Counted from the stretch's first letter, positions 13,960 to 61,000 are shown. The stretch: 64,000 bases of DNA from an uncultured Planctomycetales bacterium (GCA_964489065.1 CAZAXH010000003.1:191104-255103); one strand, 5' to 3'. Numbers and translations are program-made. The notes: generated by a model from the sequence alone, not told the origin.

Positions 13960-13982
13960 ACGGGCTTGTCTATAACCCCCTC

Positions 13983-20578: not shown

Positions 20579-20598
20579 AATAAAGGACACGAAAAGCC

Positions 20599-21285
20599 AT
20601 GAAAAGATTGTTTTGTTTTATAGCGGTTGCTTGTTTTCTGGTCACATTGACCGGGTGCGGGGGGACACGGGCGCAGACCGCCGGGAAAAATCATTCAAAC
20701 GATGCCATGCCGCCTGTAAAAGAAGAGACCTGCCCGTCGCCAACGGTCACGCCGGGGTACGACCCGGCATCCCCGGAAGTTTTTGAATACCAGATCGGCA
20801 CGGAGAATGTGTTGCAGATAGACGTTTATTACGGGAAAGGGGAGCAAATATCCCAGAAGGTCCGGGTTTCCTCCCGGGGGACGATTTCATTCCCTTTGGT
20901 CGGGGACGTATCTGTGCTGGGCTTGACAGTGTCTAACTTGCAGAACAAGCTGACCCTCCTTCTGGCCAGAGATTATTTAGTGAACCCGCAGGTGACGGTT
21001 TTTATTGAAGAATACAGCACGGTTTCCATCCTTGGAGAAGTGAAGCGGCCGGGCGCGTATCCGCTGAAAGGACGGCTTACGGTGTTAGAGCTGGTGGCCC
21101 TGGCCGAAGGGTTTACCAAGATTGCCGCCCCCAATAAAGTGAAGGTGCTGCGTGCTAACGCTGACGGCAGCCGGGAAGAGGTTTTGGTAAGGGTGAACGA
21201 TATTATCAACAAGGACAATGTAGACCAGGACAATCTGGTGCTGCGTGCCGGGGATTTGGTGGTTGTCCCGGAAAGTCTGTTTTAA
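20599..21285 (+). CDS. wza: Polysaccharide export outer-membrane lipoprotein (Wza/KpsD-like: Poly_export plus SLBB)
   Basis: Lipobox LTGC. Poly_export motifs IGTENVLQIDVY...GTISFPLVGDVSVLGLTVSNLQNKL and an SLBB-type domain VSILGEVKRPGAYPL. Confidence 0.85.
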   Translation: MKRLFCFIAVACFLVTLTGCGGTRAQTAGKNHSNDAMPPVKEETCPSPTVTPGYDPASPEVFEYQIGTENVLQIDVYYGKGEQISQKVRVSSRGTISFPLVGDVSVLGLTVSNLQNKLTLLLARDYLVNPQVTVFIEEYSTVSILGEVKRPGAYPLKGRLTVLELVALAEGFTKIAAPNKVKVLRANADGSREEVLVRVNDIINKDNVDQDNLVLRAGDLVVVPESLF

Positions 21286-21295
21286 GGAGTTTATT

Positions 21296-23026: not shown

Positions 23027-23163
23027 TCAGAAAGCATTCTACCCGTCTTTGCTGGCACGCCAGAAAAACAGGGCGCTGGTGATTCAGGCGTCTAAGGGTG
23101 TTCTGGCGTATTTTTGTTTTCGAAAAGAAGTATTAATATATTAAATATTTTTTTAAAAAGGAC

Positions 23164-24135
23164 ATGATGAAAACGCTATTACTAACAGGGGCGGCCGGAT
23201 TTATCGGCTCACGGACAGGGAAGAAGCTGCTTGAGAAGGGCGCGCAGGTTATCGGGATCGACAACATGAACGATTATTATGATGTGCGGATGAAAGAATA
23301 CCGGCTGAAAAGGATAAAGAAATATAATAATTTTAAATTTCATAAATGTGATATCGAGGATCGGGCGTCTTTACAGCGGGTTTTTAAAAAATATAAAATT
23401 GCTGCAGTGATTAATTTGGCCGCCCGGGCCGGGGTGCGCTACAGCATGGAGAACCCGTTCGTATACATGACGACCAACGCCAACGGCACTTTGAATTTGC
23501 TTGATGAATGCCGGGAACACGGTGTGAAGAAATTTGTCCTGGCGTCTACCTCATCACTGTACGCCGGACAGCAGATGCCGTTTCAGGAGGACCTGGCCGT
23601 GAACACGCCGATTTCACCTTATGCCGCTAGCAAGAAAGCCGCGGAGGTGATGGCCTATACGTATCATTACTTATACGGCATTGACGTGACTGTGCTGCGG
23701 TATTTCACTGTTTATGGGCCGGCCGGGCGGCCGGACATGAGTGTTTTTCGCTTTATCAAGTGGATCGATGAAGGCCGGCCGATGGAAATTTTCGGCGACG
23801 GCACCCAGAGCCGGGATTTCACTTATGTGGACGATATCGCCGACGGCACCATTAAGGCTTTGAAAAAAGTAGGTTTTGAAGTTATTAATCTGGGGGGGAA
23901 TCAGCCATCCTCTCTTAATGAAATGATCGGCCTGATCGAGAAATACCTTGGTAAATCATCCAGCCGTGATGAAAAGGAGTTTCACAAAACCGACCTTAAA
24001 GCCACCTGGGCGGATATTTCAAAGGCCCATCGGTTGCTGAGCTGGAAGCCGAAAGTAGGGCTGGAGGCAGGGATCAGGAATACGGTTGAGTGGTATTTGG
24101 AGAACAAGAAGTGGGTGGCAGGAGTGAAGATATAG
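23164..24135 (+). CDS. NAD-dependent nucleotide-sugar epimerase (UDP-glucuronate 4-epimerase-like SDR)
   Basis: GAAGFIGS Rossmann motif, catalytic YAASK, high similarity pattern to the Cap1J/WbnF family. Confidence 0.8.
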   Translation: MMKTLLLTGAAGFIGSRTGKKLLEKGAQVIGIDNMNDYYDVRMKEYRLKRIKKYNNFKFHKCDIEDRASLQRVFKKYKIAAVINLAARAGVRYSMENPFVYMTTNANGTLNLLDECREHGVKKFVLASTSSLYAGQQMPFQEDLAVNTPISPYAASKKAAEVMAYTYHYLYGIDVTVLRYFTVYGPAGRPDMSVFRFIKWIDEGRPMEIFGDGTQSRDFTYVDDIADGTIKALKKVGFEVINLGGNQPSSLNEMIGLIEKYLGKSSSRDEKEFHKTDLKATWADISKAHRLLSWKPKVGLEAGIRNTVEWYLENKKWVAGVKI

Positions 24136-38167: not shown

Positions 38168-39079
38168 ATGTCTATAATTCCGACATTACGACTATGGATA
38201 GGGACTTTCCTGCGGTTTTCGGGGATAAGTTTTTTCTTGCGTGAGGTAGTGTTGAGGAATCGGAACACGATTATTTATTATCATTGTCCCTCAGCCATGA
38301 TTTTTGAAAAGCATTTAGAATATTTAATAAAAAGGTATAATATTATTTCATTAGACGCTCTAGTACAAGCCATCGTATCTCAGGATTGGTCAAATATCCC
38401 GTCGAAAAGTATGGTTATCACTATTGATGATGGTTATAAGGAGAATTTTGCGTTACTTAATGTGATAAAGAAATATAAAATACCTGTTACGATATATTTG
38501 TCTAGTCATGTTGTTAATACAAAAAGGAGATTTTGGTTTGAAGCCGGATTTCCGGACAATACAGTTTTGATGCGCTTCTCGAATCAACAGCGGCTTGCCT
38601 TCCTGGCAAAAGAAGTCGGGTTCCATCCGACTAAGGCATATGAAGAACCCCAGGCTTTAAATGATGAACAGATCATGGAAATGTCGCCATTCGTGGATTT
38701 CCAGTCTCATGGCCGGTATCATTTTCCATTAGGGACTTGTTCGGATGAGGAGAGCAACTTGGAAATCCGCGAATCCCGGGTGTTCTTGGGGGAAAAGCTG
38801 AAAAAGGAAATAGAACATTTTTCTTATCCTAACGGTAGCTACGGAGAGCGCGAAATTACTTATTTAAAGAATGAGGGGTATGTTTCCTCGGTGACGGTAG
38901 ATGTCGGTTGGAATACACAAAAAACAAGTTCTTTTACTTTGAAACGAATGCCGATCTCTGATGATGCTCCGATTAATGAGTTGGTGGCGCAGTTGTTCGG
39001 AATCGCGTGTTATTTTCACTTTTTGTTTTCGGGGAGCTGGGGAGGAAAAAGGCCTAAGGATGCGCGTGTAGCAGGTTGA
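38168..39079 (+). CDS. Polysaccharide deacetylase (CE4, NodB homology domain)
   Basis: MVITIDDGYKEN, which is the TxDDG motif 1, then VTIYL, then a His motif QSHGRYHFPL. Confidence 0.75.
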   Translation: MSIIPTLRLWIGTFLRFSGISFFLREVVLRNRNTIIYYHCPSAMIFEKHLEYLIKRYNIISLDALVQAIVSQDWSNIPSKSMVITIDDGYKENFALLNVIKKYKIPVTIYLSSHVVNTKRRFWFEAGFPDNTVLMRFSNQQRLAFLAKEVGFHPTKAYEEPQALNDEQIMEMSPFVDFQSHGRYHFPLGTCSDEESNLEIRESRVFLGEKLKKEIEHFSYPNGSYGEREITYLKNEGYVSSVTVDVGWNTQKTSSFTLKRMPISDDAPINELVAQLFGIACYFHFLFSGSWGGKRPKDARVAG

Positions 39080-39110
39080 ATCTGAAAGGACAGGAGTATA
39101 AAATAAAACC

Positions 39111-39200
39111 ATGAAACGCCTTTTCGACATTTTCTTTTCGGTTTTCGGGCTGGTGGTGTTTGCCATGTTGAGGGGGGGCGGCACCGTAAGTATTTGATTA
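39111..39200 (+). pseudogene. Truncated 5' remnant of an undecaprenyl-phosphate sugar-transferase gene (copy 1 of 3)
   Basis: atgaaacgccttttcgacattttcttttcggttttcgggctggtggtgtttgcc (MKRLFDIFFSVFGLVVFA) is preceded by an AGGAG ribosome-binding site and is identical to the first 54 nt of the remnant at 40647. It matches the 5' end of the intact gene at 42540 and then runs into a stop. Confidence 0.7.
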
Positions 39201-39310
39201 ATAATATATGTAAAAATATGAAGTTCTCCGAAGACTCGGGTTTCTTGACTAATTTAATGCGCATATTGATATAGTCTTGACTTTTTCAATATAAATGTTA
39301 AACTTTTGCT

Positions 39311-40540
39311 ATGGAAACACGGCTCCTTTATCAGCGGTTATGGCAGGACCTGGTGGCCGAAAAGAGCATGATTTTTATTTCCGGCCCCCGCCAGGTCGGG
39401 AAAACCACTCTTGTGCGGGATATTATTTCGCCCGTGCATCCCAACGCTATTTATTTTAACTGGGATATTGTGGACAGCAAGAAAACGCTTATCCATGACC
39501 CTTATTTTTTTCAGTCCATGGACGTTGACGGCCCCGGTCGTCCGCTGGTTATCTTGGATGAGATTCATAAATATCGCTTGTGGAAAAATTATTTAAAGGG
39601 CGTTTACGATAAGTTTCAGGGACGGTTCGCTTTCGCGGTCTTGGGGAGCGGCCGCCTGGATACTGTTAAGCGGGCCGGTGATGCCATGACCGGCCGCTTT
39701 TGGGAGATGCATCTTTTCCCGTTCACGGTCGCGGAGATTGCGGGCGGACGGTTGCGCGTTGATGAGTTTTTTGAGGACCCTTTTTCCGTGCCGGATGCGG
39801 TTGACGCTGCTGAAAGCACGCGAATTTGGGAAAACCTTTTTCGCACCGGCGGTTTTCCAGAGCCTTTCTTGAGCGGGAAAGAGACCACTTGGCGCCGATG
39901 GTCTGCCAATTATGGCCGGCAGATTATCCGGGATGATATGCGGTCCCTGGCGGATATTAAACTTGTTGACGATATTGAAACCCTGTTTTCTCTGTTGCCC
40001 ATGAAAGTGGGAAGCCCGCTATCGATCAACAATTTGGCGGGGGATATACAGGTGAGTTTCCCAGCGGTCAAAAGCTGGTTGGAATTGTTTGATCATTTTT
40101 ATCTGACCTTCCGGATATCACCCTGGACGCAAAAAATTTCTCGGGCCATTTTGAAAGAGAAAAAGCTGTACCTTTTCGACTATCGTCTGGTCCCGGATGC
40201 TGCCGCCCGCTTTGAAAATATGGTGGCACTTGAGTTGTTGCGGGCCGTTCGATCATGGAACGAATGGGGATGGGGAAATTATGGCCTGCATTATTTACGG
40301 AACAAAGAAAAGAAAGAAATAGACTTTCTGCTTACTAACGACCGTCGACCTATTCTTTTGATCGAGACCAAACTGACGGACGCAACACCGGCTCCGGCTT
40401 TAAGGGAATATCAGGCGATATTGAATGTCCCTGCGATCCAACTAGTTCATACGCCCGGTACCGTGCGTAGAGTTTTTGAAGATAAACACGGAAAGTTAGG
40501 GGTTTTTTCCGCGGCCCGCTGGCTGGCGGCGTTGCCGTGA
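39311..40540 (+). CDS. AAA+ ATPase with C-terminal DUF4143 (restriction-endonuclease-like) domain. A mobile or defence-associated family
   Basis: Walker A ISGPRQVGKTT, Walker B PLVILDEIH, and a C-terminal ~150-aa region typical of AAA_14/DUF4143 proteins. Confidence 0.7.
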   Translation: METRLLYQRLWQDLVAEKSMIFISGPRQVGKTTLVRDIISPVHPNAIYFNWDIVDSKKTLIHDPYFFQSMDVDGPGRPLVILDEIHKYRLWKNYLKGVYDKFQGRFAFAVLGSGRLDTVKRAGDAMTGRFWEMHLFPFTVAEIAGGRLRVDEFFEDPFSVPDAVDAAESTRIWENLFRTGGFPEPFLSGKETTWRRWSANYGRQIIRDDMRSLADIKLVDDIETLFSLLPMKVGSPLSINNLAGDIQVSFPAVKSWLELFDHFYLTFRISPWTQKISRAILKEKKLYLFDYRLVPDAAARFENMVALELLRAVRSWNEWGWGNYGLHYLRNKEKKEIDFLLTNDRRPILLIETKLTDATPAPALREYQAILNVPAIQLVHTPGTVRRVFEDKHGKLGVFSAARWLAALP

Positions 40541-40646
40541 GTTTTTGGCGCTTGGGTAAGCGGATTTAAGACAGTCCAAGAACTTCATTTTTAGAAGAAC
40601 AGGGGCACAGAAATCGATGTTGGTGACTGAAAAAAATTTTCAACCA

Positions 40647-40764
40647 TGAAACGCCTTTTCGACATTTTCTTTTCGGTTTTCGGGCTGGTGGTGTTTGCCC
40701 CGGTTATGGGCGTCTCGGCCGCGTTTATCAAGTTGATCGCTTGCGGGGTGATGTTTTGGTATAT
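40647..40764 (+). pseudogene. Truncated 5' remnant of an undecaprenyl-phosphate sugar-transferase gene (copy 2 of 3)
   Basis: MKRLFDIFFSVFGLVVFAPVMGVSAAFIKL matches 42540 (MKRLFDIIFSLFGLVVFAPLMGASAALIKL), then diverges and stops. It runs directly into the 18-bp-arm palindrome. Confidence 0.7.
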
Positions 40765-40807
40765 TTTTGTACGATACTGTCAATTTTAGACAGTATCGTA
40801 CAAAAAT
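40765..40807. repeat. Perfect palindrome tttttgtacgatactgtc-aatttta-gacagtatcgtacaaaaa. Candidate bidirectional terminator, operator or recombination scar
   Basis: 18-bp perfectly complementary arms, a 7-nt loop, a T-run on the 5' side and an A-run on the 3' side. Confidence 0.8.
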
Positions 40808-41012
40808 ATTGATATCTTGCGTTTCATAAGGTATACTTTTGGTAGGGGGGGCTGTTCGTCCTAGTGGGGCCGGAATGACGTGAAATGAAGCTCCCCGCAG
40901 CTACGGGGAATCCAGATAGGGCATCATTCTTGGAGTGTTAACCGGATCAAGCTACGGAGAATGTCTTCTTCTGAGAGCGAAAGGTTAATGTAGATAGCCA
41001 TAAAGTCCAATT

Positions 41013-41654
41013 ATGAATAAAGCCGTTGAGTTTGTGTATACCCATTTGCCTTATGATGTTTTTACTGACCGGGATGTGGCCCTGTTGATGGGGCCGGAAC
41101 GTAGCGATTACAGCCGCCATGGCTTGGTCAAACGGGCGTTGCACAAGGGGGATATCCTCCGCATTCGCCGGGGGATTTATTGCCTGGCGAAAAAATATCA
41201 GCGCCAACCGCTGAATTATTTCAGCCTTGCCCAGTTGATTTACGGACCGTCTTATATTAGTTTGGAATCGGCACTGTCGTATCATGGATGGATCCCGGAA
41301 GGGGTTTTTATGGTCACTTCGGTTAGCCTAGAGCGGTCCCGCACTTTTCAAACGCCCCTTGGCGGTTTTTCCTACCAGCGGGTTGTGCAGGAGCAGTTTT
41401 ATGAACATGTTGACCGAGTTGAGTCCGAGGGGTTGCCTTTTTTTTTGGCGCGGCCGTTCAAAGCCCTGTGTGATTATTTTTATGTCCATCGGCAAAACTG
41501 GCGCTCGGTCCGACCGCTCCAAGAAAGTCTTCGGATAGAAGATGATATGCTCGGTCAGATCACGAGGAGTGATCTGGACTGTTTGTATGAAAATTATCGC
41601 AGCCGCAGGGTTAAGACGTTTATCATGGGCGTGAGAAAGGATCTGGGGTTATGA
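41013..41654 (+). CDS. abiEi: AbiEi-family antitoxin / transcriptional regulator (type IV TA, abortive infection)
   Basis: N-terminal winged-helix-like segment with DILRIRRGIYCLAK (the conserved RGvY motif of AbiEi_4). It overlaps the next gene by 4 nt. Confidence 0.8.
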   Translation: MNKAVEFVYTHLPYDVFTDRDVALLMGPERSDYSRHGLVKRALHKGDILRIRRGIYCLAKKYQRQPLNYFSLAQLIYGPSYISLESALSYHGWIPEGVFMVTSVSLERSRTFQTPLGGFSYQRVVQEQFYEHVDRVESEGLPFFLARPFKALCDYFYVHRQNWRSVRPLQESLRIEDDMLGQITRSDLDCLYENYRSRRVKTFIMGVRKDLGL

Positions 41655-42508
41655 CTGTCGCGATGATCCAGGAAAGATTGAGGACATACGCGTGCGTCAG
41701 CGTGCAGGAAGAGGGGCAGGCGTTGCGCGAAATTACCCAGGAGGTCGTGCTCGCTGGCTTGGCGAGGACGGACTTCTTCAAGTATGCCGAGTTCCATGGC
41801 GGGACCTGTTTAAGGATATTCCACGGGGTGGATCGTTTCAGCGAAGACCTTGATTTTGTCCTGAAGTCCGCTGACAAAGATTTTACGCTCGAAGTTTATT
41901 TAAGATCAGCTTTGCGCGAACTTTCTGCCTACGGGTTTCGGTTTGAGGTGATTGACCGTTCGAAAGCCGGTAGCGCCGTAAAAAAAGCCTTTGTTAAGGA
42001 TGATTCCATCGGCAAACTGCTGGAATTGCAGTTTGTCAAAACGGACCGCTCAACAAAGACAATCAAGATTAAGATTGAGGTTGATGCTAACCCACCCGTC
42101 GGAGCCAGTTCGCTCACGCGGTATTTGACGTTTCCATTTCCGGCATCCATTACGGTTCACGATGTCCCCAGCCTTTTTGCGGGAAAGTTGCATGCTCTGT
42201 TATGCCGTGAGTATATCAAGGGGCGCGACTGGTATGATCTGGTCTGGTATCTTTCGCAGAAAACCGATGTGAATTACCGGCTTTTGACGGCGCAGGTTCA
42301 CCAGACAGTCCCGTGGAAAGGCCAGGGATTGATAGCTTCGGAAGAATGGTGTTTCGGTGAACTCCGGAAGAAAGTGGAAACTCTGGATTGGGCGGCGGCG
42401 CGGCGTGAGGTCAGCCCCTTTGTCAGGCAGCGGGGACAGGCTTCCTTGGAATTATGGGGAAAGGATTTTTTTTGTTCCTTGCTGGATGCTTATCATAGCC
42501 GGGCATAA
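41651..42508 (+). CDS. abiEii: AbiEii/AbiGii-family nucleotidyltransferase toxin (DUF1814)
   Basis: HGGTCLRIFHGVDRFSEDLDFV is the GS/GGT...RxSxDxD nucleotidyltransferase signature of AbiEii. Its size (285 aa) and its coupling to abiEi fit the family. Confidence 0.85.
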   Translation: MTVAMIQERLRTYACVSVQEEGQALREITQEVVLAGLARTDFFKYAEFHGGTCLRIFHGVDRFSEDLDFVLKSADKDFTLEVYLRSALRELSAYGFRFEVIDRSKAGSAVKKAFVKDDSIGKLLELQFVKTDRSTKTIKIKIEVDANPPVGASSLTRYLTFPFPASITVHDVPSLFAGKLHALLCREYIKGRDWYDLVWYLSQKTDVNYRLLTAQVHQTVPWKGQGLIASEEWCFGELRKKVETLDWAAARREVSPFVRQRGQASLELWGKDFFCSLLDAYHSRA

Positions 42509-42539
42509 TCTGATTGCCGAGAGGTAGGCTAAAAGAATT

Positions 42540-43193
42540 ATGAAGAGATTATTCGACATTATATTTTCATTGTTCGGGCTGGTGGTGTTTGCCCCGCTTA
42601 TGGGGGCCTCGGCTGCGCTCATCAAGCTGACGTCCCCGGGCCCGGTGATTTACGCGCAGAAACGGGTGGGCCTGCATGAGCGGATTTTTGATGTTTACAA
42701 ATTCCGCTCCATGGTGGATAAAGCCGATACTTTAGGGACGTCGGTCACCACCGGGGTCGACCCGCGTATCACGCCGATCGGGCGGTTTCTGCGGAAGACC
42801 AAATTCGATGAGCTGCCCCAACTGTTTAACGTGCTTAAGGGCGACATGAGTTTTGTGGGTCCGCGGCCGGATGTTCCGGAGATCACTTCGAAATATACCC
42901 CCGATATGAAGCGTATCTTTATGATCCGTCCGGGCATCACCAGCGTGGCCACGCTGCATTTCCGGCACGAAGAAGAGATTTTGGCAAAGGTTAAGAACCC
43001 CGACGAGTTCTATGACAGGGTTGTCGTGCCTTTAAAGGTGGATCTGGCCATGGAACACGTCCGAAAGAATTCGTTTTCTTTCGATCTGCTGATTTTGATC
43101 CAGACGGTCTGGGTGCTGACCCCGTTGGGCAGAATATGGCCGGTCAAAGAACATAATTCGGTAAAATTATTCAGGGAGAAATACGCGTTATGA
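42540..43193 (+). CDS. Undecaprenyl-phosphate sugar phosphotransferase (small PglC/WbaP-C-type initiating transferase)
   Basis: Single N-terminal TM, then KRVGLHERIFDVYKFRSMV...FVGPRPDVPE, the bacterial sugar-transferase catalytic motifs. Confidence 0.9.
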   Translation: MKRLFDIIFSLFGLVVFAPLMGASAALIKLTSPGPVIYAQKRVGLHERIFDVYKFRSMVDKADTLGTSVTTGVDPRITPIGRFLRKTKFDELPQLFNVLKGDMSFVGPRPDVPEITSKYTPDMKRIFMIRPGITSVATLHFRHEEEILAKVKNPDEFYDRVVVPLKVDLAMEHVRKNSFSFDLLILIQTVWVLTPLGRIWPVKEHNSVKLFREKYAL

Positions 43194-44377
43194 CACAGCC
43201 TGTTTTCGCGCCTTGGCCGGCCTTTGACCGGGAAATTACAGAAGCGGTAGCAGAAATTTTAAACTCCGGGAAAGTCAATCAATGGACCGGCCAGCATGTT
43301 TACGCGTTTGAAAAAGAATACGCGGAGTATCTGGGAGTGAAACACGCCATTGCCATGGCCAACGGGTCGGTCACGCTGGATACCGCTTTAAAAGTGCTGG
43401 GGGTAGGCCCCGGGGATGAAGTAGTGGTGACCAGCCGTTCGTTTGTGGCGTCCGCCAGTTGTGTGGCTTTGACCGGCGCTTTGCCGGTTTTTGCCGACGT
43501 GGATATGAAAAGTGGAAACATCACGGCGGATACGATTGCCGCGGTCTTAAGCAAGAGGACAAAAGCGGTGATCGCGGTTCACCTGGCCGGATGGCCGTGC
43601 GATATGGATCCCATCCTTAAACTCTGCCGGACGAAGAAACTGTTTTTGATTGAAGACTGCGCGCAGGCGCACGGCGCGCAATATAACGGCAGGCCGGTGG
43701 GAACGTTTGGGCAGTTCTCCTCGTTTTCATTTTGCCAGGATAAAATATTCACGACCGGAGGGGAAGGCGGCCTTTTGGCTGTGAATGACTCCAAACTTTG
43801 GAAGAAGGCCTGGAGTTTAAAAGACCATGGCCGTGATTTTGATGCGGTGTTTCATCACAAGGGCGGCACCGGTTTTAAATGGATGGTGAACAGTTTCGGC
43901 ACAAATTACCGGATGACCGAAATACAGGCGGTCATCGGCCGGATTATGCTTAAACGTCTGGACGGCATGGTTGCCACGCGCCGCCGTTACGCGGGCCTGC
44001 TCAACGACGCTTTTGAGCGAACGCCCGGCTTGACCGTGACCCGGCCGCCGGAAAATATTTATCATTCTTATTACAAGTATTATGTTTTGGTGGACCTAAA
44101 GCGCCTTAAAAAGGACTGGACCCGTGACCGTATTTTACAGGAGCTGGCGCAACGGGGCGTTTCCTGCGGATGCGGGGCCTGCCCGGAGATATATAAGGAG
44201 AAGGCTTTTCGCGACCAGCGAAAAAAAGCCGGCTTAAAACCCCAGCCCCGTCTGCCAGCCGCCAAAGCGCTGGGGGAGCGGTCCATCATGCTGCAGGTTC
44301 ATCCCACGTTGAGTGAAGAAAGTGTATTATATGTCATAGATTGTATGCGGTCGGTTTTGAAGAAAGCCGTTCGGTGA
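43190..44377 (+). CDS. DegT/DnrJ/EryC1/StrS-family PLP-dependent sugar aminotransferase
   Basis: GDEVVVTSRSFVASASCV and the Lys-containing SFSFCQDKIFTTGGEGGLL motif. 4-nt overlap with the upstream transferase. Confidence 0.85.
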   Translation: MTQPVFAPWPAFDREITEAVAEILNSGKVNQWTGQHVYAFEKEYAEYLGVKHAIAMANGSVTLDTALKVLGVGPGDEVVVTSRSFVASASCVALTGALPVFADVDMKSGNITADTIAAVLSKRTKAVIAVHLAGWPCDMDPILKLCRTKKLFLIEDCAQAHGAQYNGRPVGTFGQFSSFSFCQDKIFTTGGEGGLLAVNDSKLWKKAWSLKDHGRDFDAVFHHKGGTGFKWMVNSFGTNYRMTEIQAVIGRIMLKRLDGMVATRRRYAGLLNDAFERTPGLTVTRPPENIYHSYYKYYVLVDLKRLKKDWTRDRILQELAQRGVSCGCGACPEIYKEKAFRDQRKKAGLKPQPRLPAAKALGERSIMLQVHPTLSEESVLYVIDCMRSVLKKAVR

Positions 44378-44546
44378 TTTTATAACGTGAATCATTTTTT
44401 CCTGCAGTTATTACTTTTCACGCACCGTTCACGTATAATTCATAATCAAGTGATATTCTGTTTTTGTGATATTGTGCCGTTTTTTTAGCAAAAAGACCCT
44501 GTCCTCGTATATACCGGTATGTCCAGGTGTGGGCGTGGTTGCCCCC

Positions 44547-44575
44547 TTGACAATAGTATTGAGGTCTAGTATACT
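44547..44575 (+). promoter_or_regulatory. Consensus sigma70 promoter TTGACA-17nt-TATACT, driving a ~200-nt leader plus DUF218-wbpM
   Basis: TTGACA at 44547-44552, a 17-nt spacer, TATACT at 44570-44575. Confidence 0.55.
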
Positions 44576-44776
44576 TACCTTTTTCTTGTATAAAATGAGT
44601 GTTAGTGTCGGTTGTCCCCGCCGGCGCATAGTAAACAAACGGTAACCAGGGGTGAGTATACTATGAGGTCAGGTAATGGCTGTGAAACGATTGTCCGTGT
44701 TTTGTCCGCCTTTGCACAAAACTACGGGCATGCCCGTGGTTGAAGGCGAGAGGGTAGCCATGTTCCTGCCTCGGGA

Positions 44777-45481
44777 ATGTTTGTGCGTATGTTAAGAAGT
44801 CAGCTTGTCACGCGAACGGAATTGTTTACAGGTCTCCGGCCCAGGGACGCGGGGCTCCATAAACGGATGCTGTGGCGGACCATTGTTTTATTTTTTATTC
44901 TGGTTTCATGGCCGTTTTGGTGCAGGCCGTTATGCCGGGCCACGGGGCATTTTTTGATTGTTTCAAATGATTTGAAAAAAGCCGATGTGGTTGTGGTCCT
45001 GGCCGGAGACACCGAACGGGTCGGTCAGGCCGTCAGTCTTTATAAACAGGGGCTCGCGGATTATATCATTATGAGCGGCGGGGCCGAATCGTCGCCGGTG
45101 ACCATGGCCGAGAGCATGAAGCGCCAGGCCCGGGGCATGGGTGTTCCGGAAAAGGATATTATCCTGGAACCAGAATCGCAGCATACTTACCAGCATCCGT
45201 TCCTGGTCGCTCCGTTGCTGAAGGAACGCGGCTTTAAATCGGCGATTATCGTCAGTTCGCCGTATCATATGCGCCGGGTCGCGCTGTTGTTCAACCGGGC
45301 GTTTAAGCGCAGCGGGGTCAAGCTTATGTATTGTCCGGCGGCAAACAGTTGGTTTAACCCGGACACCTGGTGGCAAAGCGCCGGCGGCCGTAAGGTGGTG
45401 TACCTGGAATACACGAAGATGTGCGTGAATATATTTGGCAAAAAAGTGAATGATGTGGTCAGTCACCTGGTGCATGATTAA
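44777..45481 (+). CDS. DUF218 / YdcF (SanA/ElyC-like) family protein
   Basis: ADVVVVLAGD...YIIMSGG...IIVSSPYHMRRV motifs typical of DUF218. N-terminal TM. The exact start is uncertain. Confidence 0.65.
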   Translation: MFVRMLRSQLVTRTELFTGLRPRDAGLHKRMLWRTIVLFFILVSWPFWCRPLCRATGHFLIVSNDLKKADVVVVLAGDTERVGQAVSLYKQGLADYIIMSGGAESSPVTMAESMKRQARGMGVPEKDIILEPESQHTYQHPFLVAPLLKERGFKSAIIVSSPYHMRRVALLFNRAFKRSGVKLMYCPAANSWFNPDTWWQSAGGRKVVYLEYTKMCVNIFGKKVNDVVSHLVHD

Positions 45482-45550
45482 AATTATTCAAAAATTAAAG
45501 GACGATTCACTGTCAGCGGACAAGGCCGCGGGGATCGAGGAGGCAGTACT

Positions 45551-47419
45551 ATGAAGCGTTTTATGCGAGGTCGCGGGTTTTTAATGGTGTGCGATATGGT
45601 TGTCATCAACCTGGCCTTTCTGCTGGCCCTGGTGCTGCGTTTTGATTTTGCCGTGCCGGCGCCGTGGCGGGATATGTATCTTCACACGTTTCTTCTGTAT
45701 TCCCTTGTCAGCTTCACCGTGTTCTCCCGGGCGCAGTTTTATCATCATGACTGGCGCTATATGACCGCTAAAAATGTCATCCGCCTTTCCGGCGGCGTGG
45801 TGTTAAGCGTGTTCATTTATATGCTGGCGCTGTATTTTGTCCACCACTGGACGTTCCCTCGGATTGTGATTTTGTTGGGTATGCTGCTGGCCGTGCTGTT
45901 TACCACCGGCTTGAGGCTGGCCATTCACAGCCTGTATTCCTGGAAAAGAAGCGGCAGTTATGACGGTGCCAAGCGGGTGCTTATTGTCGGCGCCGGCGAC
46001 GCCGGGGAAGGGCTGGTCCGCGATATGCTGCGGGCGCAGCCGGTTTTGTATACTCCCGTCGGCTTCCTGGACGACGATCCGTTTAAAAACGGCATGCTCA
46101 TTCATGGGATTCCGGTCTTGGGCCCGGTGTCCCAGGTTAAATCCGTCGTGAAGAAAAAAGGGGTGGAGTTGATCATTATTTCTATTCCCTCCGCGCACAG
46201 CGACGAAATGCGCCGCATGGTGACTCTGTGCGAAATGACCGGCGTGGAAGTCAAGAAAGTGCCTTCGCTGATTTCGATTCTGGACGGCACGGTGAGCGTC
46301 AGCCAGATTAAGAATGTCGAGCCGGAAGACCTGCTGGGCCGCGACCCCAACTTGGCCGACCGGGAAGAGATTGTTAAATTTATACGGGGAAAAGTGATCA
46401 TGGTGACCGGCGCCGGGGGGTCGATCGGCTCTGAGCTCTGCCGTCAAATCCAGGGCTACCAGCCGAAACAGCTCATCCTTCTGGACAGCTCCGAGCACCA
46501 TGTGTACTCGATCGACATGGAGCTGTCGTCTCTGCATAAGACCGGCAAACCTCTTCATGTTCCGCTGGTCGCGAATATCCAGCATAAAAATAAGATGGAG
46601 CATATTTTTGACCAGTTCCGCCCGGAGGTGGTGTTCCATGCCGCGGCCTACAAGCATGTGCCGTTGATGGAGAGGAACGTGGATGCCGCGGTGAAGAATA
46701 ATATTTGGGGCACGTATAATATTGCCACTCTGGCCGCGAAGTATCAGGTGAAGCGGTTTGTGATGATCTCCACCGACAAGGCGGTGAATCCCACCAATGT
46801 CATGGGCGCCAGCAAGCGGCTGGCGGAAATGGTGATTCAGTCGTTGAACGGGCACAGCCAAACCGTGTTCAGCGCGGTGCGCTTTGGCAACGTGCTGGAC
46901 AGCAACGGCAGCGTGCTGCCGCTGTTCAGGAAGCAGATCGCCGAAGGCGGGCCTGTCACCGTAACCCACCCGGACGTGGTGCGGTATTTTATGACCATTC
47001 CCGAAGCGGTTCAGCTGGTCCTTACCGCGGCCACCATGGCGTGCGGCGGGGAGATTTATGTTTTGGAAATGGGCGAACCGGTGCGGATTCTCGATATGGC
47101 CAAGTCGTTGATCAAACTCTCCGGGTTTGAGCCGGATCGGGATATCAAGATTGAAATTGTCGGGTTGCGGCCCGGGGAAAAACTTTATGAAGAGCTTTTG
47201 ACTTCCCAGGAAGGCGTGCGCAAGACCGCCAACAATCAGATTTATGTTGAGAAACCGCGCTATTTTGACAAAGAAAAGCTGATCCGCGACGTGGAAGAGC
47301 TCTGGCAGCTGGCGGACGTGCGGGACATCCCCGGCGTGCTGGCGAAGATGAAGCAGGTGGTTCCGGAATTTAGTTCAAACCGTATTCACGCTGTTTCCCC
47401 GGAACTTGGGCTGAAATGA
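45551..47419 (+). CDS. Membrane-anchored nucleotide-sugar 4,6-dehydratase/epimerase (CapD/WbpM/PglF family)
   Basis: Four N-terminal TM helices, then a Rossmann motif VIMVTGAGGSIGSEL and the SDR catalytic YKHVPLME...STDKAV. Confidence 0.9.
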   Translation: MKRFMRGRGFLMVCDMVVINLAFLLALVLRFDFAVPAPWRDMYLHTFLLYSLVSFTVFSRAQFYHHDWRYMTAKNVIRLSGGVVLSVFIYMLALYFVHHWTFPRIVILLGMLLAVLFTTGLRLAIHSLYSWKRSGSYDGAKRVLIVGAGDAGEGLVRDMLRAQPVLYTPVGFLDDDPFKNGMLIHGIPVLGPVSQVKSVVKKKGVELIIISIPSAHSDEMRRMVTLCEMTGVEVKKVPSLISILDGTVSVSQIKNVEPEDLLGRDPNLADREEIVKFIRGKVIMVTGAGGSIGSELCRQIQGYQPKQLILLDSSEHHVYSIDMELSSLHKTGKPLHVPLVANIQHKNKMEHIFDQFRPEVVFHAAAYKHVPLMERNVDAAVKNNIWGTYNIATLAAKYQVKRFVMISTDKAVNPTNVMGASKRLAEMVIQSLNGHSQTVFSAVRFGNVLDSNGSVLPLFRKQIAEGGPVTVTHPDVVRYFMTIPEAVQLVLTAATMACGGEIYVLEMGEPVRILDMAKSLIKLSGFEPDRDIKIEIVGLRPGEKLYEELLTSQEGVRKTANNQIYVEKPRYFDKEKLIRDVEELWQLADVRDIPGVLAKMKQVVPEFSSNRIHAVSPELGLK

Positions 47420-55280: not shown

Positions 55281-57143
55281 ATGAAGAAAATATTTTTTTT
55301 GGTCGTTTCGCTGTTAATGATCGCAGCTTCCGCTTTTGCCGCACCAGTGGTTTTTTTTGACGACATCCCTTCGGGGAGAAACACGTTTGACTCCGATATT
55401 TCATCTGTTGGGGGGACCCAAACGAATGACGCCTTGTCCGGGCTGGCAACGGGAACGAATTCCTGGAGCCGGACGGGGTACACCATAACGTCGACAAACG
55501 CGGCCAACAGAGCCGTTGACACGACGTATTTGGCCACGCCCCAGCCCGGGAGCATCCCCGGCGGGGATGCCATCCAAATGACTGCGGACGGAACCACCAC
55601 GTCCGGATTGACGTTTACCTTCTCTTCTCCCATCAATGGATTTGGCATTGATTTTGGCGATTGGGGCACCTGCTGCTACCCTTCGACTATTTATATCTGC
55701 TTTGACGGCGGAGCGCCGATTGCCATCGGGACGGCGAACGCGACAACGGATAACCCGGGCTTCGCCACGTATGGGGTGTTTGAAAATTTTATCGGTAGCA
55801 TTGACGATTCCGGGACGTTTTCAGTCGTTACGCTTTACGGTACCGGGACCGGTGATGTCCTCTACGCCGGAGGCGTTATCCGTTATGCGGTCGTGCCAAT
55901 CGGCTCTATTTCGTCCCCGACCACCTCTCCGACTTACCCCACGACGGTCAGCACCAGGCCGGTGAGCCCCTTGGCCGATTATCTCGACGCGTACGACGGC
56001 AGCGGGACGTTGCACACGGTGGGTACGACCCTGGACGGGTATTCCGAATCAGAAGTGGAAGAATCCCTGAAACACATTTTCCCTGTTGACAGCGTTTCAA
56101 GCGCCCACGCCACGATAGCCAATATACAGAACGTCAATTCGCTTGTTCACGATAAGATCGGCACTGTTTTAGGTGGCATGAACGCGGGCTCGAATTTCAA
56201 CCAGGCGCTTAACCCGTATGCCGATCCATATGGCCTATCCCAAACAGAGGTGAACTTTGAATCGTTCATGCAGGCGCTGTCGAGTGTCGATTATAAACAA
56301 TTTGAAAAAGGCGAAAGAGGGGTGTGGATTCAGGGGATGTTCGGGGGCAGTCATGGCGAGCGCACCGATTTCAGCAATGGGTATAATGCCGAAAAGTACG
56401 GCGTTTTGGCCGGGTATGAGTTTGCCGTTGATTCCAGGCACCTTCTGGGGGTTTACGCCAACAGTCTTTTTTCCGAAATCGACCTGACCCAGAACGCGGG
56501 TACAACGGAAATAAAAGATTATGTCTTCGGCGTATACGGCCAGAAAATTATGGGCGGATATAAGCTGTCGTCGACGATAGGCGGCGGAATCGCTAAATAT
56601 GACTCCATCAGGAACGTTGTCGTGGGAGCTGTCTCCGGAAGCCCCGAGGCCGAGTATGACGGCAATCATTTTTCGACCACTCTTTCCGTCAGCCGGTTAT
56701 TCGAGCAGCAAAGCGTCCAAGTGGAGCCGTTCTTGCAGACAGGATATCTTTACAATAAAACGGATGGGTATACGGAATTCAACGGGGGATCGTTTAATAT
56801 GCAGGTTGATGAAAATTCTTTCGCACAGATGAACATCAAAGCCGGGGTGGCGTTGAAAAAGGATTTTCAGGCGAATTTAAAGACGGTTTCCCTCAAGCTG
56901 CGCCCGTTCATTAATCACGTTTTTGAAGTTAAGGACAGCGATGATATTAACGTCAGGTTCATTGGGGCTTCAACTCAGACGACAATCAAAGGCCGGGACT
57001 CGTCCGTTACGGAAAAAGGGGCCAACTTTGAGCTGAGTTGCCAGATCAGTCCTGCTTGGGGTTTCAAGGGCTTTATGGATTACTCTTCTGATAAATATGA
57101 AGAACGATATATGGGGTTTTTAGAGGTTAATACCAAGTTTTAA
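55281..57143 (+). CDS. Autotransporter-like outer-membrane protein (Thr/Gly-rich passenger plus C-terminal beta-barrel translocator)
   Basis: Signal peptide. A passenger region rich in G/T/S/A with beta-solenoid-like composition. The C-terminal ~270 aa consist of alternating amphipathic strands and end in ...FLEVNTKF, with a terminal aromatic residue. Confidence 0.6.
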   Translation: MKKIFFLVVSLLMIAASAFAAPVVFFDDIPSGRNTFDSDISSVGGTQTNDALSGLATGTNSWSRTGYTITSTNAANRAVDTTYLATPQPGSIPGGDAIQMTADGTTTSGLTFTFSSPINGFGIDFGDWGTCCYPSTIYICFDGGAPIAIGTANATTDNPGFATYGVFENFIGSIDDSGTFSVVTLYGTGTGDVLYAGGVIRYAVVPIGSISSPTTSPTYPTTVSTRPVSPLADYLDAYDGSGTLHTVGTTLDGYSESEVEESLKHIFPVDSVSSAHATIANIQNVNSLVHDKIGTVLGGMNAGSNFNQALNPYADPYGLSQTEVNFESFMQALSSVDYKQFEKGERGVWIQGMFGGSHGERTDFSNGYNAEKYGVLAGYEFAVDSRHLLGVYANSLFSEIDLTQNAGTTEIKDYVFGVYGQKIMGGYKLSSTIGGGIAKYDSIRNVVVGAVSGSPEAEYDGNHFSTTLSVSRLFEQQSVQVEPFLQTGYLYNKTDGYTEFNGGSFNMQVDENSFAQMNIKAGVALKKDFQANLKTVSLKLRPFINHVFEVKDSDDINVRFIGASTQTTIKGRDSSVTEKGANFELSCQISPAWGFKGFMDYSSDKYEERYMGFLEVNTKF

Positions 57144-57160
57144 CGGTTCGTCCTTGCGGA

Positions 57161-57712
57161 ATGATGAAACGAACGTTGCGTTTTTGGTCGATTTTCTCGG
57201 TTCTTGTCCTGGGGGCGGCGTCCGCCCAGGCGACCATGTTCTGGCGGCCGGCCGAAGCCGCCATGGGGAGGGTGTATGAAATCCTCGAACCGGAAACGCC
57301 GGACATATCGCTGCCCGGCGGCCTTTCGGAAGATATCCGCGCCCGGATTCAAAAAAGCGGCCGGGGCATGCCGTTAGGCCCGGCCGAATACCCGTCCGAG
57401 CGATTGTCGACGCTCGCCTGGGAAGCTCTTGAGGCGCGGGATGTCCCCAAAGTGGAAGCGGCGGTCTTTTGGTGCCTGGAGATTTACGGAGAAGAAGCCA
57501 GAAGGCTGCAGGCGGAATTTGAGGCGGATGACATGAAATATCTCAATGCCCTGCAGCCTTATTTGAAGCCTATGCGGCCGCTGGTTTATGTCGGGGAAGC
57601 CCTGTTCGCTTTAGGCGAGGCTTACCGCCGGGTCGGCCGGGAGGAAGAAGCCCTGTTCGTGTACAGCGAATTGATCCATAAATATTATCTTTCCGCCTCT
57701 GAAAGGCGTTAA
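57161..57712 (+). CDS. Hypothetical secreted protein
   Basis: Signal peptide (VLVLGAASAQA). Helical, TPR-like composition. Confidence 0.4.
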   Translation: MMKRTLRFWSIFSVLVLGAASAQATMFWRPAEAAMGRVYEILEPETPDISLPGGLSEDIRARIQKSGRGMPLGPAEYPSERLSTLAWEALEARDVPKVEAAVFWCLEIYGEEARRLQAEFEADDMKYLNALQPYLKPMRPLVYVGEALFALGEAYRRVGREEEALFVYSELIHKYYLSASERR

Positions 57713-58049
57713 CAGTCTGCTGAAAAATCCTGAATTTGCCGCTTTGAAGCCTAAGGGGCCGAGAACATCGGCGATAAGATTTTGACCATGCCTGTGTCTG
57801 GGGCAAAGAAGAGACTTCTTCAGCAGGCAGCCAAGAGCCGTAAAGACTTTAAAAGAACATCCTTATTTTTGTGAGCTTGCGATAGGGGCCATGACTTTTC
57901 ATCTGGTAATCCCGCTGCTTACAGAGTAAGGATTTTTTTATCCGCCATGTTAGATTTTGGGCAAAGCAACGTCAATATTAGTAGAAGACAGGGACACTTT
58001 TTTCATTCCATTGTGATTCAATTTTATGACTAGTATAGGGAGGTGCCGT

Positions 58050-61000
58050 ATGAAGAAGGTCATGGTTGTGCTTTTGCTCAATGTGATCGTTCCGCTGCTT
58101 GTTGTTTCATCTTGTTTGGGTGGTTTGTTTTACCAGGATTTTGAAGAAGGCAATGGATCGGCTCAATATGGCTGGGCTTTTAATGGGGCCTCAGCAGGGT
58201 TTTCTTCCGGAGAAGAGCCGGTTCATGACGGCGCCCGGTCATGGAAGATGACTTCGCCCGGGCTTTGGGGCGGGACAGGTATCCCTTCCCAGATTGAGAC
58301 ATGGGACATGAACTTTCAGCCGGCCCGGCATGATCGTTTAACCTTTTGGATTTATGCGCTTCCAGACGAGTCCAGCGAGAGTTTGGATAATAATGTATCT
58401 GTGAAATTTTTTGACCGGGAAAATTACAACAGCACCGGATTTGAAGTATGGACCAGCAAGGCGGCTCAATATGGCGCCTGGACCCGGCTGACGGTTCTTT
58501 TTTCTCAATTGCCGCAGGATTTTAATTTGAATCGTATTGATAAAATTGAATTTGTTAATTATTATCCGGGAACATATTATTTGGACGATATCCAGGTTGT
58601 TTCAGAAGACCGTATGTATCAGTCTTTTGAGCCCATCGTTTTTGAGTCCGGCTTTATCGGAGAAGAGTATGAGAAATTCGGGTGGGCCTGGAACGGGACA
58701 GTTGATCTGTTTGTGGATAATCAAATTGTCTTGGAAGGGAGCCAGTCCTGGATGCTGGACACGCTGGATCTCTGGGGTGGGACGGGCATCCGGTCTCAAG
58801 AGAAGAAACTGGTCCTGACCGGACAAGGGTACGAGCAGTCTCCGTGGCATGTGGATCTTTTGGGAGTTCACGGGGGACAGCTTCCGGAAGATTCCCCCTA
58901 TGACCACCTGACGTTCTGGGTTTACTCCCTGGCCGAGAACGGCCTGGATAACACGTTGAGTCTTCAGTTTTTTGACCATAACAATTATCCAGAGGACTTT
59001 GAAGACCCGGAACGCCGGAATCCTTATGTTCTTTGGACGGAACAGCCGGCGGTGTACGGGGAATGGACAAAATTTACGATCCCCTTTGACGCCTTGCCTC
59101 CGGACCTAGAATTGCACAATTTGAATAAACTTCAATTTCAGGTTTATTGGAAAGGCCGTTATTTTTTTGATGACCTGCGCGCCGCTAAACCTTGTCCGGA
59201 TATAGATAAAGCGGCGTTGGCTAACGGCGAAATTCAGTGGCCCCCGGTTCCCGGCGCAGATTTTTACACGGTGGAACAGAGTGTCAGCGGGCCCGGTGGG
59301 CCCTGGCAGAACGTTTATTCCGGGGCCGGCACAAGCTTCCCGGCGCAGCGCGTTTCCCCGGCGTGGTATCGGGTTCGGTGGGAGGAGGCCGAGGATAGCG
59401 TGTTTAACCCCGTTGCTTATGCTTCTGATTGGAGTGATGTGGCGTATTATGCCCCAGCCCAGGTCTTGCTTGACCACGCGTTGTTGAAAGAAGGGGCCTT
59501 GCAATGGACAGACATGCCGCAGGCGGACCGTTATGAAGTGGAAATGGCCACCGGCAAAAAAGGCCCGTGGCAGCAAATTTATAATGGCCCGCACACCAGC
59601 CTTGCGGCCCTGAACGGCAAGTGGTACAGGGTCCGGGCTCTGATTGAGGAGAGCGGGGCTGTTGTTGATTCGAGCGAGTGGAGTCCTGTTCAATCCTATT
59701 CTCCGGGAGAGGGGTATCTTAAGGTGGCGGGGAAATTGATCAAGGAGCAGGATGGCTGGGGGGATACCATCATATTGCGCGGTTTTAATTTGGGAAATTA
59801 CCTGCTTATTGAGCCGTGGATGACGGGGATCCGGGTCGATGACCCGGCCCGGAGTGAAGATGACTGGAATATACGCGAAAAACTCTCCGAGCGTTTTGGG
59901 CCGGCGGAGGCGGGAAGGCTGCTCGGCCTTTATCAGGAGGCGTACGTCCAAGAAGTGGATTTTGACAATATTATGCGCAGCGGCGCGAATGTGATCCGGC
60001 TTCCTATTTATTATCGGGCCATCCGGGAAATCGACGAGCAGACCGGGCAGTGGCTGGCCGGGAGCGACTTTAATTTTGAACAGGTCGACCGGGTGGTGAA
60101 TTTTTGCGCTGACCGCGGCATTTATGTGCTTCTGGATCTGCACGGCGCTCCCGGAGCGCAGAATAAAGAATTTCATTCCGGCCGCACTTCGGCGGGGTCC
60201 CCGGGTGAGGGCTTTTATCACCAGTTGTTCAACCCGGGCAATGGCGTGTACCGCCAGCGCACGGTAGAACTTTGGGAGGCGTTAGCCCAGCATTATAAGG
60301 ACAACACCGCTGTCATGGGATATGATCTGTTAAATGAGCCTTTCGGGGCCATTGACCCCCTGTATTATCCTGACATCAATGACGGCTACGAGGCCCTTTG
60401 GGATTTTTATGCCCAGTTGTATTCGGTGGTCCGACAGAAAGACCCGCATCATATCATCGTCATGGAGGCCATTCCTACGGATAAAGACTGGGATACCCTT
60501 CCGGATCCCGGTGATTATAACTGGCAAAATGTTGTTTACCAGTTTCATTATTATGGATTTAAGTTCAATAGCGCGGGCGAGATTGACGGCGTTTTGGACA
60601 GGGATCAGCAAGCGCTTTACCTGGTCAGCGGTAATGACCCGGCGTGCGAGCAATATCCGGATGACGATAAGTTCTGCGGTAAAGTTCTTTATTCCAAACA
60701 GGATGAGTATGATGTCCCGGTCTTGATCGGCGAGTTTACGGGTTTTAACCAGAGGGAAATCTGGGACCTCTATTTAAAGACTTTTAATAAGGAAGGGTGG
60801 AGTTGGACCATGTGGTCATATAAACACCACCCTCCGAGAGAGGAATGGGGGCTTTACACGCACCAGTATTATAATGACGAGGCTCCCAACGTGGGCGTGG
60901 ATGACATCACCACCTTAGAACAAAAGTTTTCTTTATACGACACTCTTTTCCATCATGAACTTAATGTTTCTTTGGGGAAAATTCTTGGTGATTATTTTTT

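Follow-up and report, generated by a model that had tools for sequence, protein, structure and literature searches.

The 64,000-nt stretch of DNA examined here (GCA_964489065.1, CAZAXH010000003.1:191104-255103), hereafter the window, with coordinates counted from its first letter, contains a Wzx/Wzy-type surface-polysaccharide locus at about 19.3-47.4 kb. An original prediction, made from the sequence itself, had placed a defence mini-island within this exopolysaccharide locus, between a deacetylase gene and the gene of a small sugar-phosphate transferase (T), and its presence was confirmed by the listing of open reading frames (ORFs) and by Pfam and PADLOC matches. The insert comprises two modules, an AAA_14/DUF4143 ATPase gene and an AbiEi/AbiEii gene pair, accompanied by remnants of the 5' end of T. 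The names carried by homologues of the locus proteins indicate Candidatus Omnitrophota as the source.

Composition of the locus and of the insert

The polysaccharide locus begins with a conserved block on its left side, encoding a beta-barrel porin (19364), a Poly_export protein (20599), a Wzz/tyrosine-kinase protein (21245) and an epimerase. The variable middle carries the genes of a flippase, an acyltransferase, glycosyltransferases, Wzy (27681), further glycosyltransferases, an ATP-grasp protein, a HAD protein, a methyltransferase and the deacetylase, and is followed by a conserved block on the right side consisting of T, a DegT aminotransferase gene (A), a DUF218 gene and a gene for a PglF/CapD-like dehydratase. 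The GC content is 0.33-0.46 in the variable part ending with the deacetylase versus 0.52-0.58 in the right conserved block. Comparison with a related 3.36-Mb contig (L087; L-numbers indicate fetched loci), whose T is 91% identical in protein to that of the window, returned a DNA identity of about 77% for both the left (21089-24115) and the right (42532-47376) block and an unrelated middle. Including a second relative, L185 (T 85% identical), the right block showed 77-78% identity, equal to that of the left block. T opens the right conserved block and the insert lies exactly at the border between this block and the variable middle, the place where recombination that swaps polysaccharide types must resolve.

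The intact T protein aligned with the Bac_transf profile through residues 2-193 (profile positions 1-177 of 179), from the N-terminal hydrophobic helix onwards, so that the domain covers the whole of a short protein of about 200 aa. The NCBIfam models matched T only via their C-terminal domain.

The ATPase carries an AAA_14 P-loop domain followed by DUF4143 and gave a full-length match (4.7e-52) to the PADLOC candidate defence family PDC-S01, of the COG1373 kind, with which it shares the two-domain architecture. Both the Walker A (GPRQVGKT, residue 25) and the Walker B motif (LVILDE, residue 79) are intact, and the C-terminal part contains the PD-(D/E)XK-like sequence pattern D338...E352-T-K354. 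DUF4143 is listed among the PD-(D/E)XK families (PMC3424549), in agreement with the nuclease-like fold foreseen for this domain. No solved structure related to the ATPase was found, and a full-text literature search returned no functional study of DUF4143. To our knowledge, neither a defence phenotype nor a mechanism has been published for PDC-S01.

The best homologues of the ATPase are 74-78% identical. Nucleotide homology to one of them, in L187 (75% identical protein), is limited to positions 39276-40543, corresponding to the promoter and the gene, thus defining the ATPase as a self-contained unit. The promoter-like site is conserved in L187 (7966-8003), and the 111-nt filler that precedes it in the window falls outside the common segment. 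As the promoter-like site ends close to the start codon, the messenger RNA may be leaderless or nearly so. In L187 the ATPase gene adjoins a glutaminyl-tRNA synthetase gene and an apparent tRNA gene, the latter judged by eye.

The second module had been predicted to be an AbiEi/AbiEii pair with a 4-nt overlap, and PADLOC matches to both proteins, over the full length for AbiEi, and a shared ATGA between the abiEi stop and abiEii start codons bore this out. AbiEi scored 29.1 bits against the Pfam model AbiEi_4 (cut-off 25) and 50.8 bits (1.5e-13) against the NCBIfam model TAA_AbiEi, below its curated cut-off of 150, while AbiEii scored 113.9 bits against its Pfam model. Motifs I-IV of AbiEii, defined as hG[GS]...DhD (I/II), KLxAxxxR (III) and +DxxD (IV) (PMC3985639), are intact in the window protein as HGG...DLD (residue 49), KLHALLCR (179) and RDWYD (192). 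The pair shares with the AbiE systems of Streptococcus agalactiae and Lactococcus (Dy et al. 2014, PMC3985639) the two-gene operon, the 4-nt overlap, also present between abiEi and abiEii of S. agalactiae, the winged-helix AbiEi and the DUF1814 toxin motifs, although the proteins are only distantly related in sequence. Judged by sequence, with gene overlap, domains and motifs all in place, the two genes qualify as a predicted AbiE type IV toxin-antitoxin or abortive-infection pair.

The best AbiEii homologue is 75% identical. In L179, AbiEii is 74% and AbiEi 66% identical to the window proteins, and in L182-L184 the identity is 65%. In L179 and L182 the AbiE genes are likewise neighbours of polysaccharide genes. 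The gene order in L179 is DUF4143 ATPase, AbiE and, further on, GT4 and flippase genes; in L182 it is CTP synthase, AbiE, an IS200-type transposase, more toxin-antitoxin genes and then Poly_export and Wzz, so that the pair sits on the opposite side of the polysaccharide locus from that of the window. Both L179 (173-3063) and the window (39311-42508) carry a DUF4143/PDC-S01 ATPase gene directly upstream of, and co-oriented with, a homologous AbiEi-AbiEii pair; the N-termini of the two ATPases share only 27% identity. No further ATPase of this kind occurred in the fetched sequence (2.34 Mb including the window), except in the locus that had been retrieved by means of the ATPase. This adjacency may reflect a functional association or the chance composition of defence islands. 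In L179 a motif, GTCACCTTTATTGA, precedes both the ATPase gene (60-110) and the AbiE operator (1375-1395), and may be a mark of module borders or a shared regulatory site. The coordinates of the features are collected in Table 1.

Table 1. Positions of the insert, its parts and the adjoining genes in the window.
Feature	Position	Strand	Evidence or remark
Polysaccharide deacetylase, last gene of the variable part	38168-39079	+	Polysacc_deac_1 2.2e-13
Repeat copy 1 / remnant 1: allele 'a' of T, codons 1-18, plus 4 nt	39107-39164	+	28-aa ORF from 39111
Filler between remnant 1 and ATPase promoter, 111 nt	39165-39275		Homology only in the same organism among fetched loci
Promoter-like site of the ATPase gene	39277-39304	+	TTGACT-16-TAAACT with TG; ends 6 nt before the start codon
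AAA_14 + DUF4143 ATPase, 409 aa	39311-40540	+	AAA_14 7.5e-25; DUF4143 1e-22
Filler 3' of the ATPase stop codon, 98 nt	40544-40641		Weak terminator-like hairpin at 40524-40538
Repeat copy 2 (40642-40699) and remnant 2: allele 'a' of T, nt 1 to about 91	40642-40759	+	Bac_transf, residues 2-37, 2.7e-4
Perfect palindrome, 21-nt arms (40761-40781 and 40789-40809), 7-nt loop	40761-40809		Core CTGTC-N7-GACAG at 40777-40793
Strongest sigma-70-like site in 38.9-42.7 kb, probable P(abiE)	40809-40837	+	TTGATA-17-TATACT (10/12)
Predicted abiE 5' leader, about 170 nt	40838-41012	+	Not conserved in L179
abiEi, antitoxin / transcriptional repressor, 213 aa	41013-41654	+	AbiEi_4 1.1e-06; PADLOC AbiEi 1.6e-59
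abiEii, nucleotidyltransferase toxin, 285 aa	41651-42508	+	AbiEii 1.5e-32; PADLOC 1e-95
T, intact, PglC-like polyprenyl-phosphate sugar-phosphate transferase, 217 aa, allele 'b'	42540-43193	+	Bac_transf 1.3e-58
A, DegT-type aminotransferase	43190-44377	+	Pfam
DUF218 gene	44777-45481	+	Pfam
PglF/CapD-like 4,6-dehydratase	45551-47419	+	Profile matches

Remnants of the transferase gene and support for the assembly

A repeat finder detected the 5' end of T three times in the window, with starts at 39111, 40646 and 42540; the first remnant start had been predicted correctly, while the second had been placed at 40647 and required correction. The two remnants share an exact 58-nt direct repeat, made up of codons 1-18 of T (54 nt) and the 4 upstream nucleotides AACC. 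As predicted, they are identical to each other over the 54 nt, and the difference from the resident gene, estimated at about 10 substitutions, is exactly 10 (44/54 identities). When the resident 5' end was used as a blastn query, the remnants were recovered with E values of 1.6e-12 and 3.7e-07. The homology of remnant 1 to T ends abruptly at nt 54; a continuation as decayed T sequence beyond this point was dropped as a reading, since 17/37 identities are only marginally above chance. Remnant 2 is clearly T-like up to about 40736, with 81% identity to resident T over 91 nt, and faintly so up to codon 38 (about 40759), within an ORF of 47 aa (40646-40789).

A ribosome-binding site had been described before each cassette, but these sites are poor: AGGAG occurs 14 nt upstream of remnant 1, and nothing recognizable precedes remnant 2. 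Remnant 1 lies 31 nt from the deacetylase gene, a spacing that looks like a native junction between variable cluster and T. In order to evaluate the frequency of such duplicates, 81 other transferase loci were scanned with their own 5' ends; none contained a comparable copy, the sole match being one of 19 nt in L039, which indicates that the triplication in the window is more than chance.

The remnants were found to represent a genuinely different allele ('a'), as had been claimed. Their first 18 nt are identical to L185, and they are 85-86% identical to L087 and L185; judged by sequence, allele 'a' is a normal allele of this group. The divergence between remnants and resident T (81% identity) is close to that of the conserved blocks between the window and L087 or L185 (76-79%). 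Codons 2-4 of resident T read AAG AGA TTA, while both remnants and L087, L185 and L186 have AAA CGC CTT/CTC; the atypical start region thus belongs to the intact gene (42540-42575) and not to the remnants. The idea that the 5' end of resident T is foreign to the rest of the gene was dropped, as the sliding identity against L087 showed no step.

The search for the donor allele or strain, suggested together with the original prediction, did not identify a donor. The remnant-type N-terminus occurred in none of the best 120 T homologues, resident T being the closest (25/30), and the exact 47-aa remnant ORF was not in the protein collection. The 39-nt repeat core had no match in viral contigs, the whole insert had none in plasmids, and no AbiEii relative was detected in viral contigs. 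The best AbiEii and ATPase homologues were 75% and 78% identical respectively, and the value for AbiEii suggests that no recent donor has been sampled. Protein-seeded scans of genome and metagenome contigs with T were driven by common words (MKRLFDII, FNVLKGDM), and the relatives among the matches listed showed at most 51% identity.

An assembly error had been named as one condition that would overturn the prediction, and independent read sets were used to address it. Logan unitigs (k=31) from SRR15237810, SRR21822500 and SRR21822498 matched the window at 100% identity, with 1 mismatch in L005. Unitigs L004 and L005 end at 39136, L003 ends at 40671, L001 and L002 start at 40670 and a further edge lies at 39135, each of these positions being exactly 30 nt from an end of the 58-nt repeat. 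All four repeat junctions were found in SRR15237810 and SRR21822500, and the breaks at the repeat edges indicate that every junction is real in independent reads, whereas the linkage over the repeat comes from the deposited assembly.

A chimeric assembly or a mixture of strains, in which the repeats would join contigs that are not contiguous in any one genome, was considered. The source is probably a metagenome-assembled contig, and the 58-nt repeat is unresolvable at k=31, all Logan unitigs breaking there. However, at least two other read sets contain all four junctions at 100% identity, no simple linear path other than the order in the window passes through each junction a single time, and the flanks are colinear with related genomes. 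Moreover, the related contig L178, described below, independently contains partial duplications of the same genes. On these grounds a chimera appears highly improbable.

The palindrome and the predicted AbiE promoter

The palindrome between remnant 2 and abiEi had been located at 40765-40807 with 18-nt arms; it is indeed perfect, but its arms measure 21 nt and its limits are wider (Table 1). It had also been taken to terminate remnant 2, a role that gives way to another, as its core, CTGTC-N7-GACAG, is conserved upstream of abiEi in homologous AbiE loci. The core occurs once in the window versus 0.02 expected. Among 187 fetched loci, it was found only upstream of abiEi, in L001/L002, L179/L180 and L182-L184, and was absent from the 180 others. 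Besides its position in the window, it lies at L179:1397-1413, L182:7247-7263 and L182:7319-7335. Three independent AbiE loci of this subfamily carry it, with arm extensions varying among 10, 16 and 21 nt.

The best promoter candidate of the region begins at the last base of the palindrome. The same layout is present in L179, where AGAAACTGTC-N7-GACAGTTTCT is followed by ACAAAAAT and then by TTGATT-17-TATACT upstream of abiEi, and in L182-L184 two copies of the core flank a TTGACA-17-TATTAT promoter. Repression of the promoter by AbiEi itself, acting on inverted repeats, is known for other members of the family (PMC3985639; PMC7319586). The restriction of the core to sites upstream of abiEi, the abutting promoter and the known repression by AbiEi thus suggest that the palindrome is most likely an AbiEi operator beside P(abiE). 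An inverted repeat at the promoter is also found in S. agalactiae, where the operator consists of two 23-bp repeats spanning the promoter, whereas that of the window would be a single palindrome just upstream of the -35 box; the S. agalactiae leader measures 26 nt, in contrast to the much longer leader predicted here (PMC3985639). Within the predicted leader, a GC-rich 8-bp hairpin, CTCCCCGCAGCTACGGGGAA, occurs at 40891-40910 and is not conserved in L179.

Three other roles of the palindrome were examined and set aside. A dispersed repeat was dropped, as the palindrome is unique within the window. An intrinsic terminator, for which a GC-rich stem followed by a T-run is expected, was discarded: the sequence is AT-rich, on either strand the T-run precedes the stem and the A-run follows it, and no terminator was reported there by the scan. 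As for an RNA gene, Rfam returned only sub-threshold matches to microRNA hairpins.

T starts 31 nt 3' of abiEii, no recognizable terminator lies between them, and all the genes are co-oriented. The arrangement therefore suggests that expression of T and of the sugar-synthesis genes beyond it is still possible, and P(abiE) may drive part of it.

Related lineages and the origin of the insert

Six related lineages were compared, two occupied (including the window) and four empty. The original prediction expected the deacetylase gene and T to be adjacent where the insert is absent, and the four empty lineages (L087, L185, L186 and L168-L173) agree with it in that the last variable gene directly abuts T with neither defence gene nor remnant. 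The order is GT2, a 255-nt spacer and T in L087, HAD and T in L185, DUF6680 and T in L186 (T 78% identical), and DUF218 and T in L168-L173 (T 76% identical).

The second occupied site, on the 17.4-kb contig L178 (T 76% identical), consists of a stacked array at 7349-17413. The array starts with a full-length T (T1) and a 55-nt inverted-repeat element, after which the 5'-terminal 378 nt of A, with 86% identity to the complete gene, are fused to a PDC-S02/SNase gene. A second full-length T (T2, 82.6% identical to T1) comes next. It is followed by a palindrome (arms of 22 nt, loop of 7 nt), by an AbiEi/AbiEii pair that belongs to another subfamily and in which AbiEii is broken into two ORFs, and by the full A. 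Beyond A, the inverted-repeat element recurs and leads on to SoFic, ParDE, a tyrosine recombinase of 234 aa and DUF218, and the start of a third T lies at the contig end. The array looks like several successive insertions into one conserved block. The repeated palindromic element measures about 53 nt (20-nt arms, 15-nt loop); its copies at 8033-8087 and 13211-13263 are 98% identical and stand directly 3' of T1 and of the full A, adjoining the respective stop codon. The element may act as a terminator or belong to a family of small dispersed hairpin repeats.

Two of the six lineages have therefore acquired defence or toxin-antitoxin cargo at the T-A block, with partial or whole copies of conserved genes left upstream in both, and the cargo of L178 at the same block indicates that the site is used recurrently. 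In 117 diverse transferase loci used as background, the gene upstream of T encoded an aminotransferase (29), a GT2 protein (23), an HtrA-like protease (11) or others; a candidate-defence match was present in about 3-4 of them, and AbiE or PDC-S01 in none. The original prediction had regarded the 5' end of T as a hotspot for cassette capture: recurrence at this site supports it for this lineage, whereas the background speaks against a hotspot that would precede small transferases throughout the bacteria.

Import of the cassettes by homologous recombination through the 5' end of T had also been proposed. A different allele is indeed involved, but plain homologous recombination replaces DNA: an ordinary double crossover leaves no duplicated ends, and additive events are needed. 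We consider it probable that two such events, acting through one-sided homology at the border between variable and conserved parts, left both remnants as scars. The incoming DNA would pair with the conserved block on one side only, and its other end would be joined illegitimately inside the recipient T, once at nt 54 and once at about nt 91-114. The old 5' end of T would be displaced upstream rather than replaced, either by homology-facilitated illegitimate recombination or by one-ended break repair copying a template with cargo upstream of T.

Several observations bear on these additive events. The junctions vary: those of the window fall at nt 54 and at about nt 91-114 of T, those of L178 involve 378 nt of A and the whole of T, and such irregular positions fit illegitimate joins better than a fixed attachment site. 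The retained fragments are all 5' ends, always upstream of the intact copy. The direction of import, assumed in the original prediction to be that of the cassettes, is no longer supported as such, since it could just as well be the variable region that was imported, with the remnants as its tail. The imported side may thus have been the cargo together with resident T, or the variable region with a stub of allele 'a'. The mechanism, direction and order of recombination, as well as defence activity and transcription, are what we infer from the DNA.

Four points weigh against this interpretation. First, the 58-nt repeat is perfect, with the same sharp ends in both copies; under break repair, this requires a donor with an identical allele or a later gene conversion, and it is better explained by a single-crossover insertion of a circle. 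Excision of a circle or a site-specific event would also yield precisely such a repeat. Second, the donor arrangement, i.e., the ATPase or AbiE genes directly upstream of an 'a'-type T, was not found in the loci searched, and the comparison covers six related lineages. Third, the order across the 58-nt repeat is that of the deposited assembly alone. Finally, the ATPase belongs to a family that is a candidate defence gene.

According to the circle explanation, the ATPase unit would have been a circle carrying 58 nt of the 5' end of T, inserted by a Campbell-type single crossover and able to loop out again, with the 5' end of T acting as a landing pad independent of any recombinase. Exact 58-nt repeats with identical boundaries around a 1477-nt insert are the product expected from a 1535-nt circle, a circular or a tandem form would fit the k=31 assembly graphs equally well, and the ATPase module has its own promoter, independent of context; the unit is thus potentially excisable through its repeats. 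However, it is general knowledge that 58 nt is near the lower limit for RecA-dependent recombination, and an initial illegitimate event would still be required to make such a circle. In addition, the AbiE module has no equal bounding repeats, remnant 2 and resident T being only 81% identical, and the ATPase homologue in L187 lacks such flanks. We therefore regard the circle as unlikely, although it is the main alternative to the additive events with one-sided homology.

The structure also resembles attL/attR repeats that rebuild a target gene, as would arise from a site-specific cassette system, either integron-like or a small element mobilized in trans, with the start of T as the attachment site and elements carrying a replacement 5' end. 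The modules are all co-oriented and carry individual promoters, the AbiE cargo of both the window and L178 is bordered on its left by a long palindrome, and the L178 array contains the tyrosine recombinase. However, no integrase or transposase was detected among the scanned ORFs of at least 150 aa in the window or in the gene tables of the Logan loci, and neither an integrase beside the array nor a conserved attachment site at the borders, which together characterize an integron or cassette platform, was found. The junctions lie at different positions, the two palindromes differ in sequence, that of the window being accounted for by its probable role as AbiEi operator, the ATPase module lacks a palindrome, and no motif is common to both module borders. 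Such a system is very unlikely to have produced the insert.

Additive recombination with one-sided homology has precedents in the displacement arrays of type VI secretion system (T6SS) effector-immunity, Rhs and contact-dependent inhibition (CDI) loci (Kirchberger et al. 2017, PMC5361080). These orphan arrays share with the window successive additive imports anchored in a conserved neighbour, the retention of older pieces as fragments of other alleles and the lack of a recombinase. In those arrays the conserved part lies upstream, and 3' ends and immunity genes are displaced downstream, whereas the window shows the mirror image, with 5' ends upstream. Furthermore, the defence and toxin-antitoxin cargo of the window is unrelated to the function of the anchoring gene, unlike that of the T6SS, Rhs and CDI arrays.

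Defence hotspots in the core genomes of E. coli, P. aeruginosa and Acinetobacter are also reported to carry varied systems at the same position between conserved genes in different strains, often with no recognizable mobile element (PMC10121019, PMC10250203, PMC11723918). The window is like them in this respect and differs in that the hotspot border coincides with the start codon of T, the initiating transferase gene, within a polysaccharide operon, and that partial copies of this flanking gene persist. As a whole, the insert can be described as a neat, fairly ordinary recombination scar at a defence-gene hotspot.

Serotype switching of O-antigen and capsule loci likewise involves a variable middle of lower GC content between conserved flanks, with the junction at the conserved edge. 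Those switches replace the middle cleanly, whereas the junction in the window kept gene fragments and trapped unrelated defence genes. The component systems, the hotspot concept and the displacement arrays are already known, and the insert holds little surprise for a specialist; what is new is the place, at the start codon of T in a polysaccharide operon, together with the phylum, the predicted operator motif and the fact that the scars point upstream.

The region shows at the base level how defence genes can settle in an essential-looking operon without the machinery of mobile elements, with the displaced 5' ends of another allele serving as dated scars. If the pattern holds across Omnitrophota, it would offer a tractable natural case in which one-sided additive recombination gives rise to a defence hotspot where a phage-receptor locus ends, and variation of the receptor would be passed on and exchanged jointly with intracellular immunity, in a single block. 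Two leads emerge, namely the predicted operator CTGTC-N7-GACAG for one AbiE subfamily and the recurrent neighbourhood of PDC-S01 ATPase and AbiE genes.

A broader picture, which we find doubtful, is that in this Omnitrophota lineage the first codons of T serve as a recombinase-free landing pad, where promoter-bearing defence modules would stack like cassettes and those flanked by repeats, such as the ATPase unit, could excise and re-insert. As a further part of this picture, the PDC-S01 ATPase and this AbiE subfamily might be functional partners, a possibility raised by two independent genomes with unrelated DUF4143 ATPases upstream of homologous AbiE genes near polysaccharide genes. The AbiEi-controlled promoter could then tie polysaccharide synthesis to the state of defence.

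Finally, some features of the surrounding DNA were recorded. The 399-nt spacer between A and the DUF218 gene (44378-44776) is partly conserved in L185 and L087 (71-75% over 100-160 nt) and contains no evident ORF. A large-scale gene order, with carbamoyl-phosphate synthase and CTP synthase and, later on, porin, Poly_export and Wzz, is common to the window (75-4422 and 19364-23026) and the Omnitrophica contig L182 (540-7148 and 9931-16855). Downstream of the polysaccharide locus, at 55281-61817, genes for a 620-aa protein with an autotransporter beta-domain and for a 1263-aa GH5 cellulase with an H-type lectin domain were observed, with no connection to the insert.

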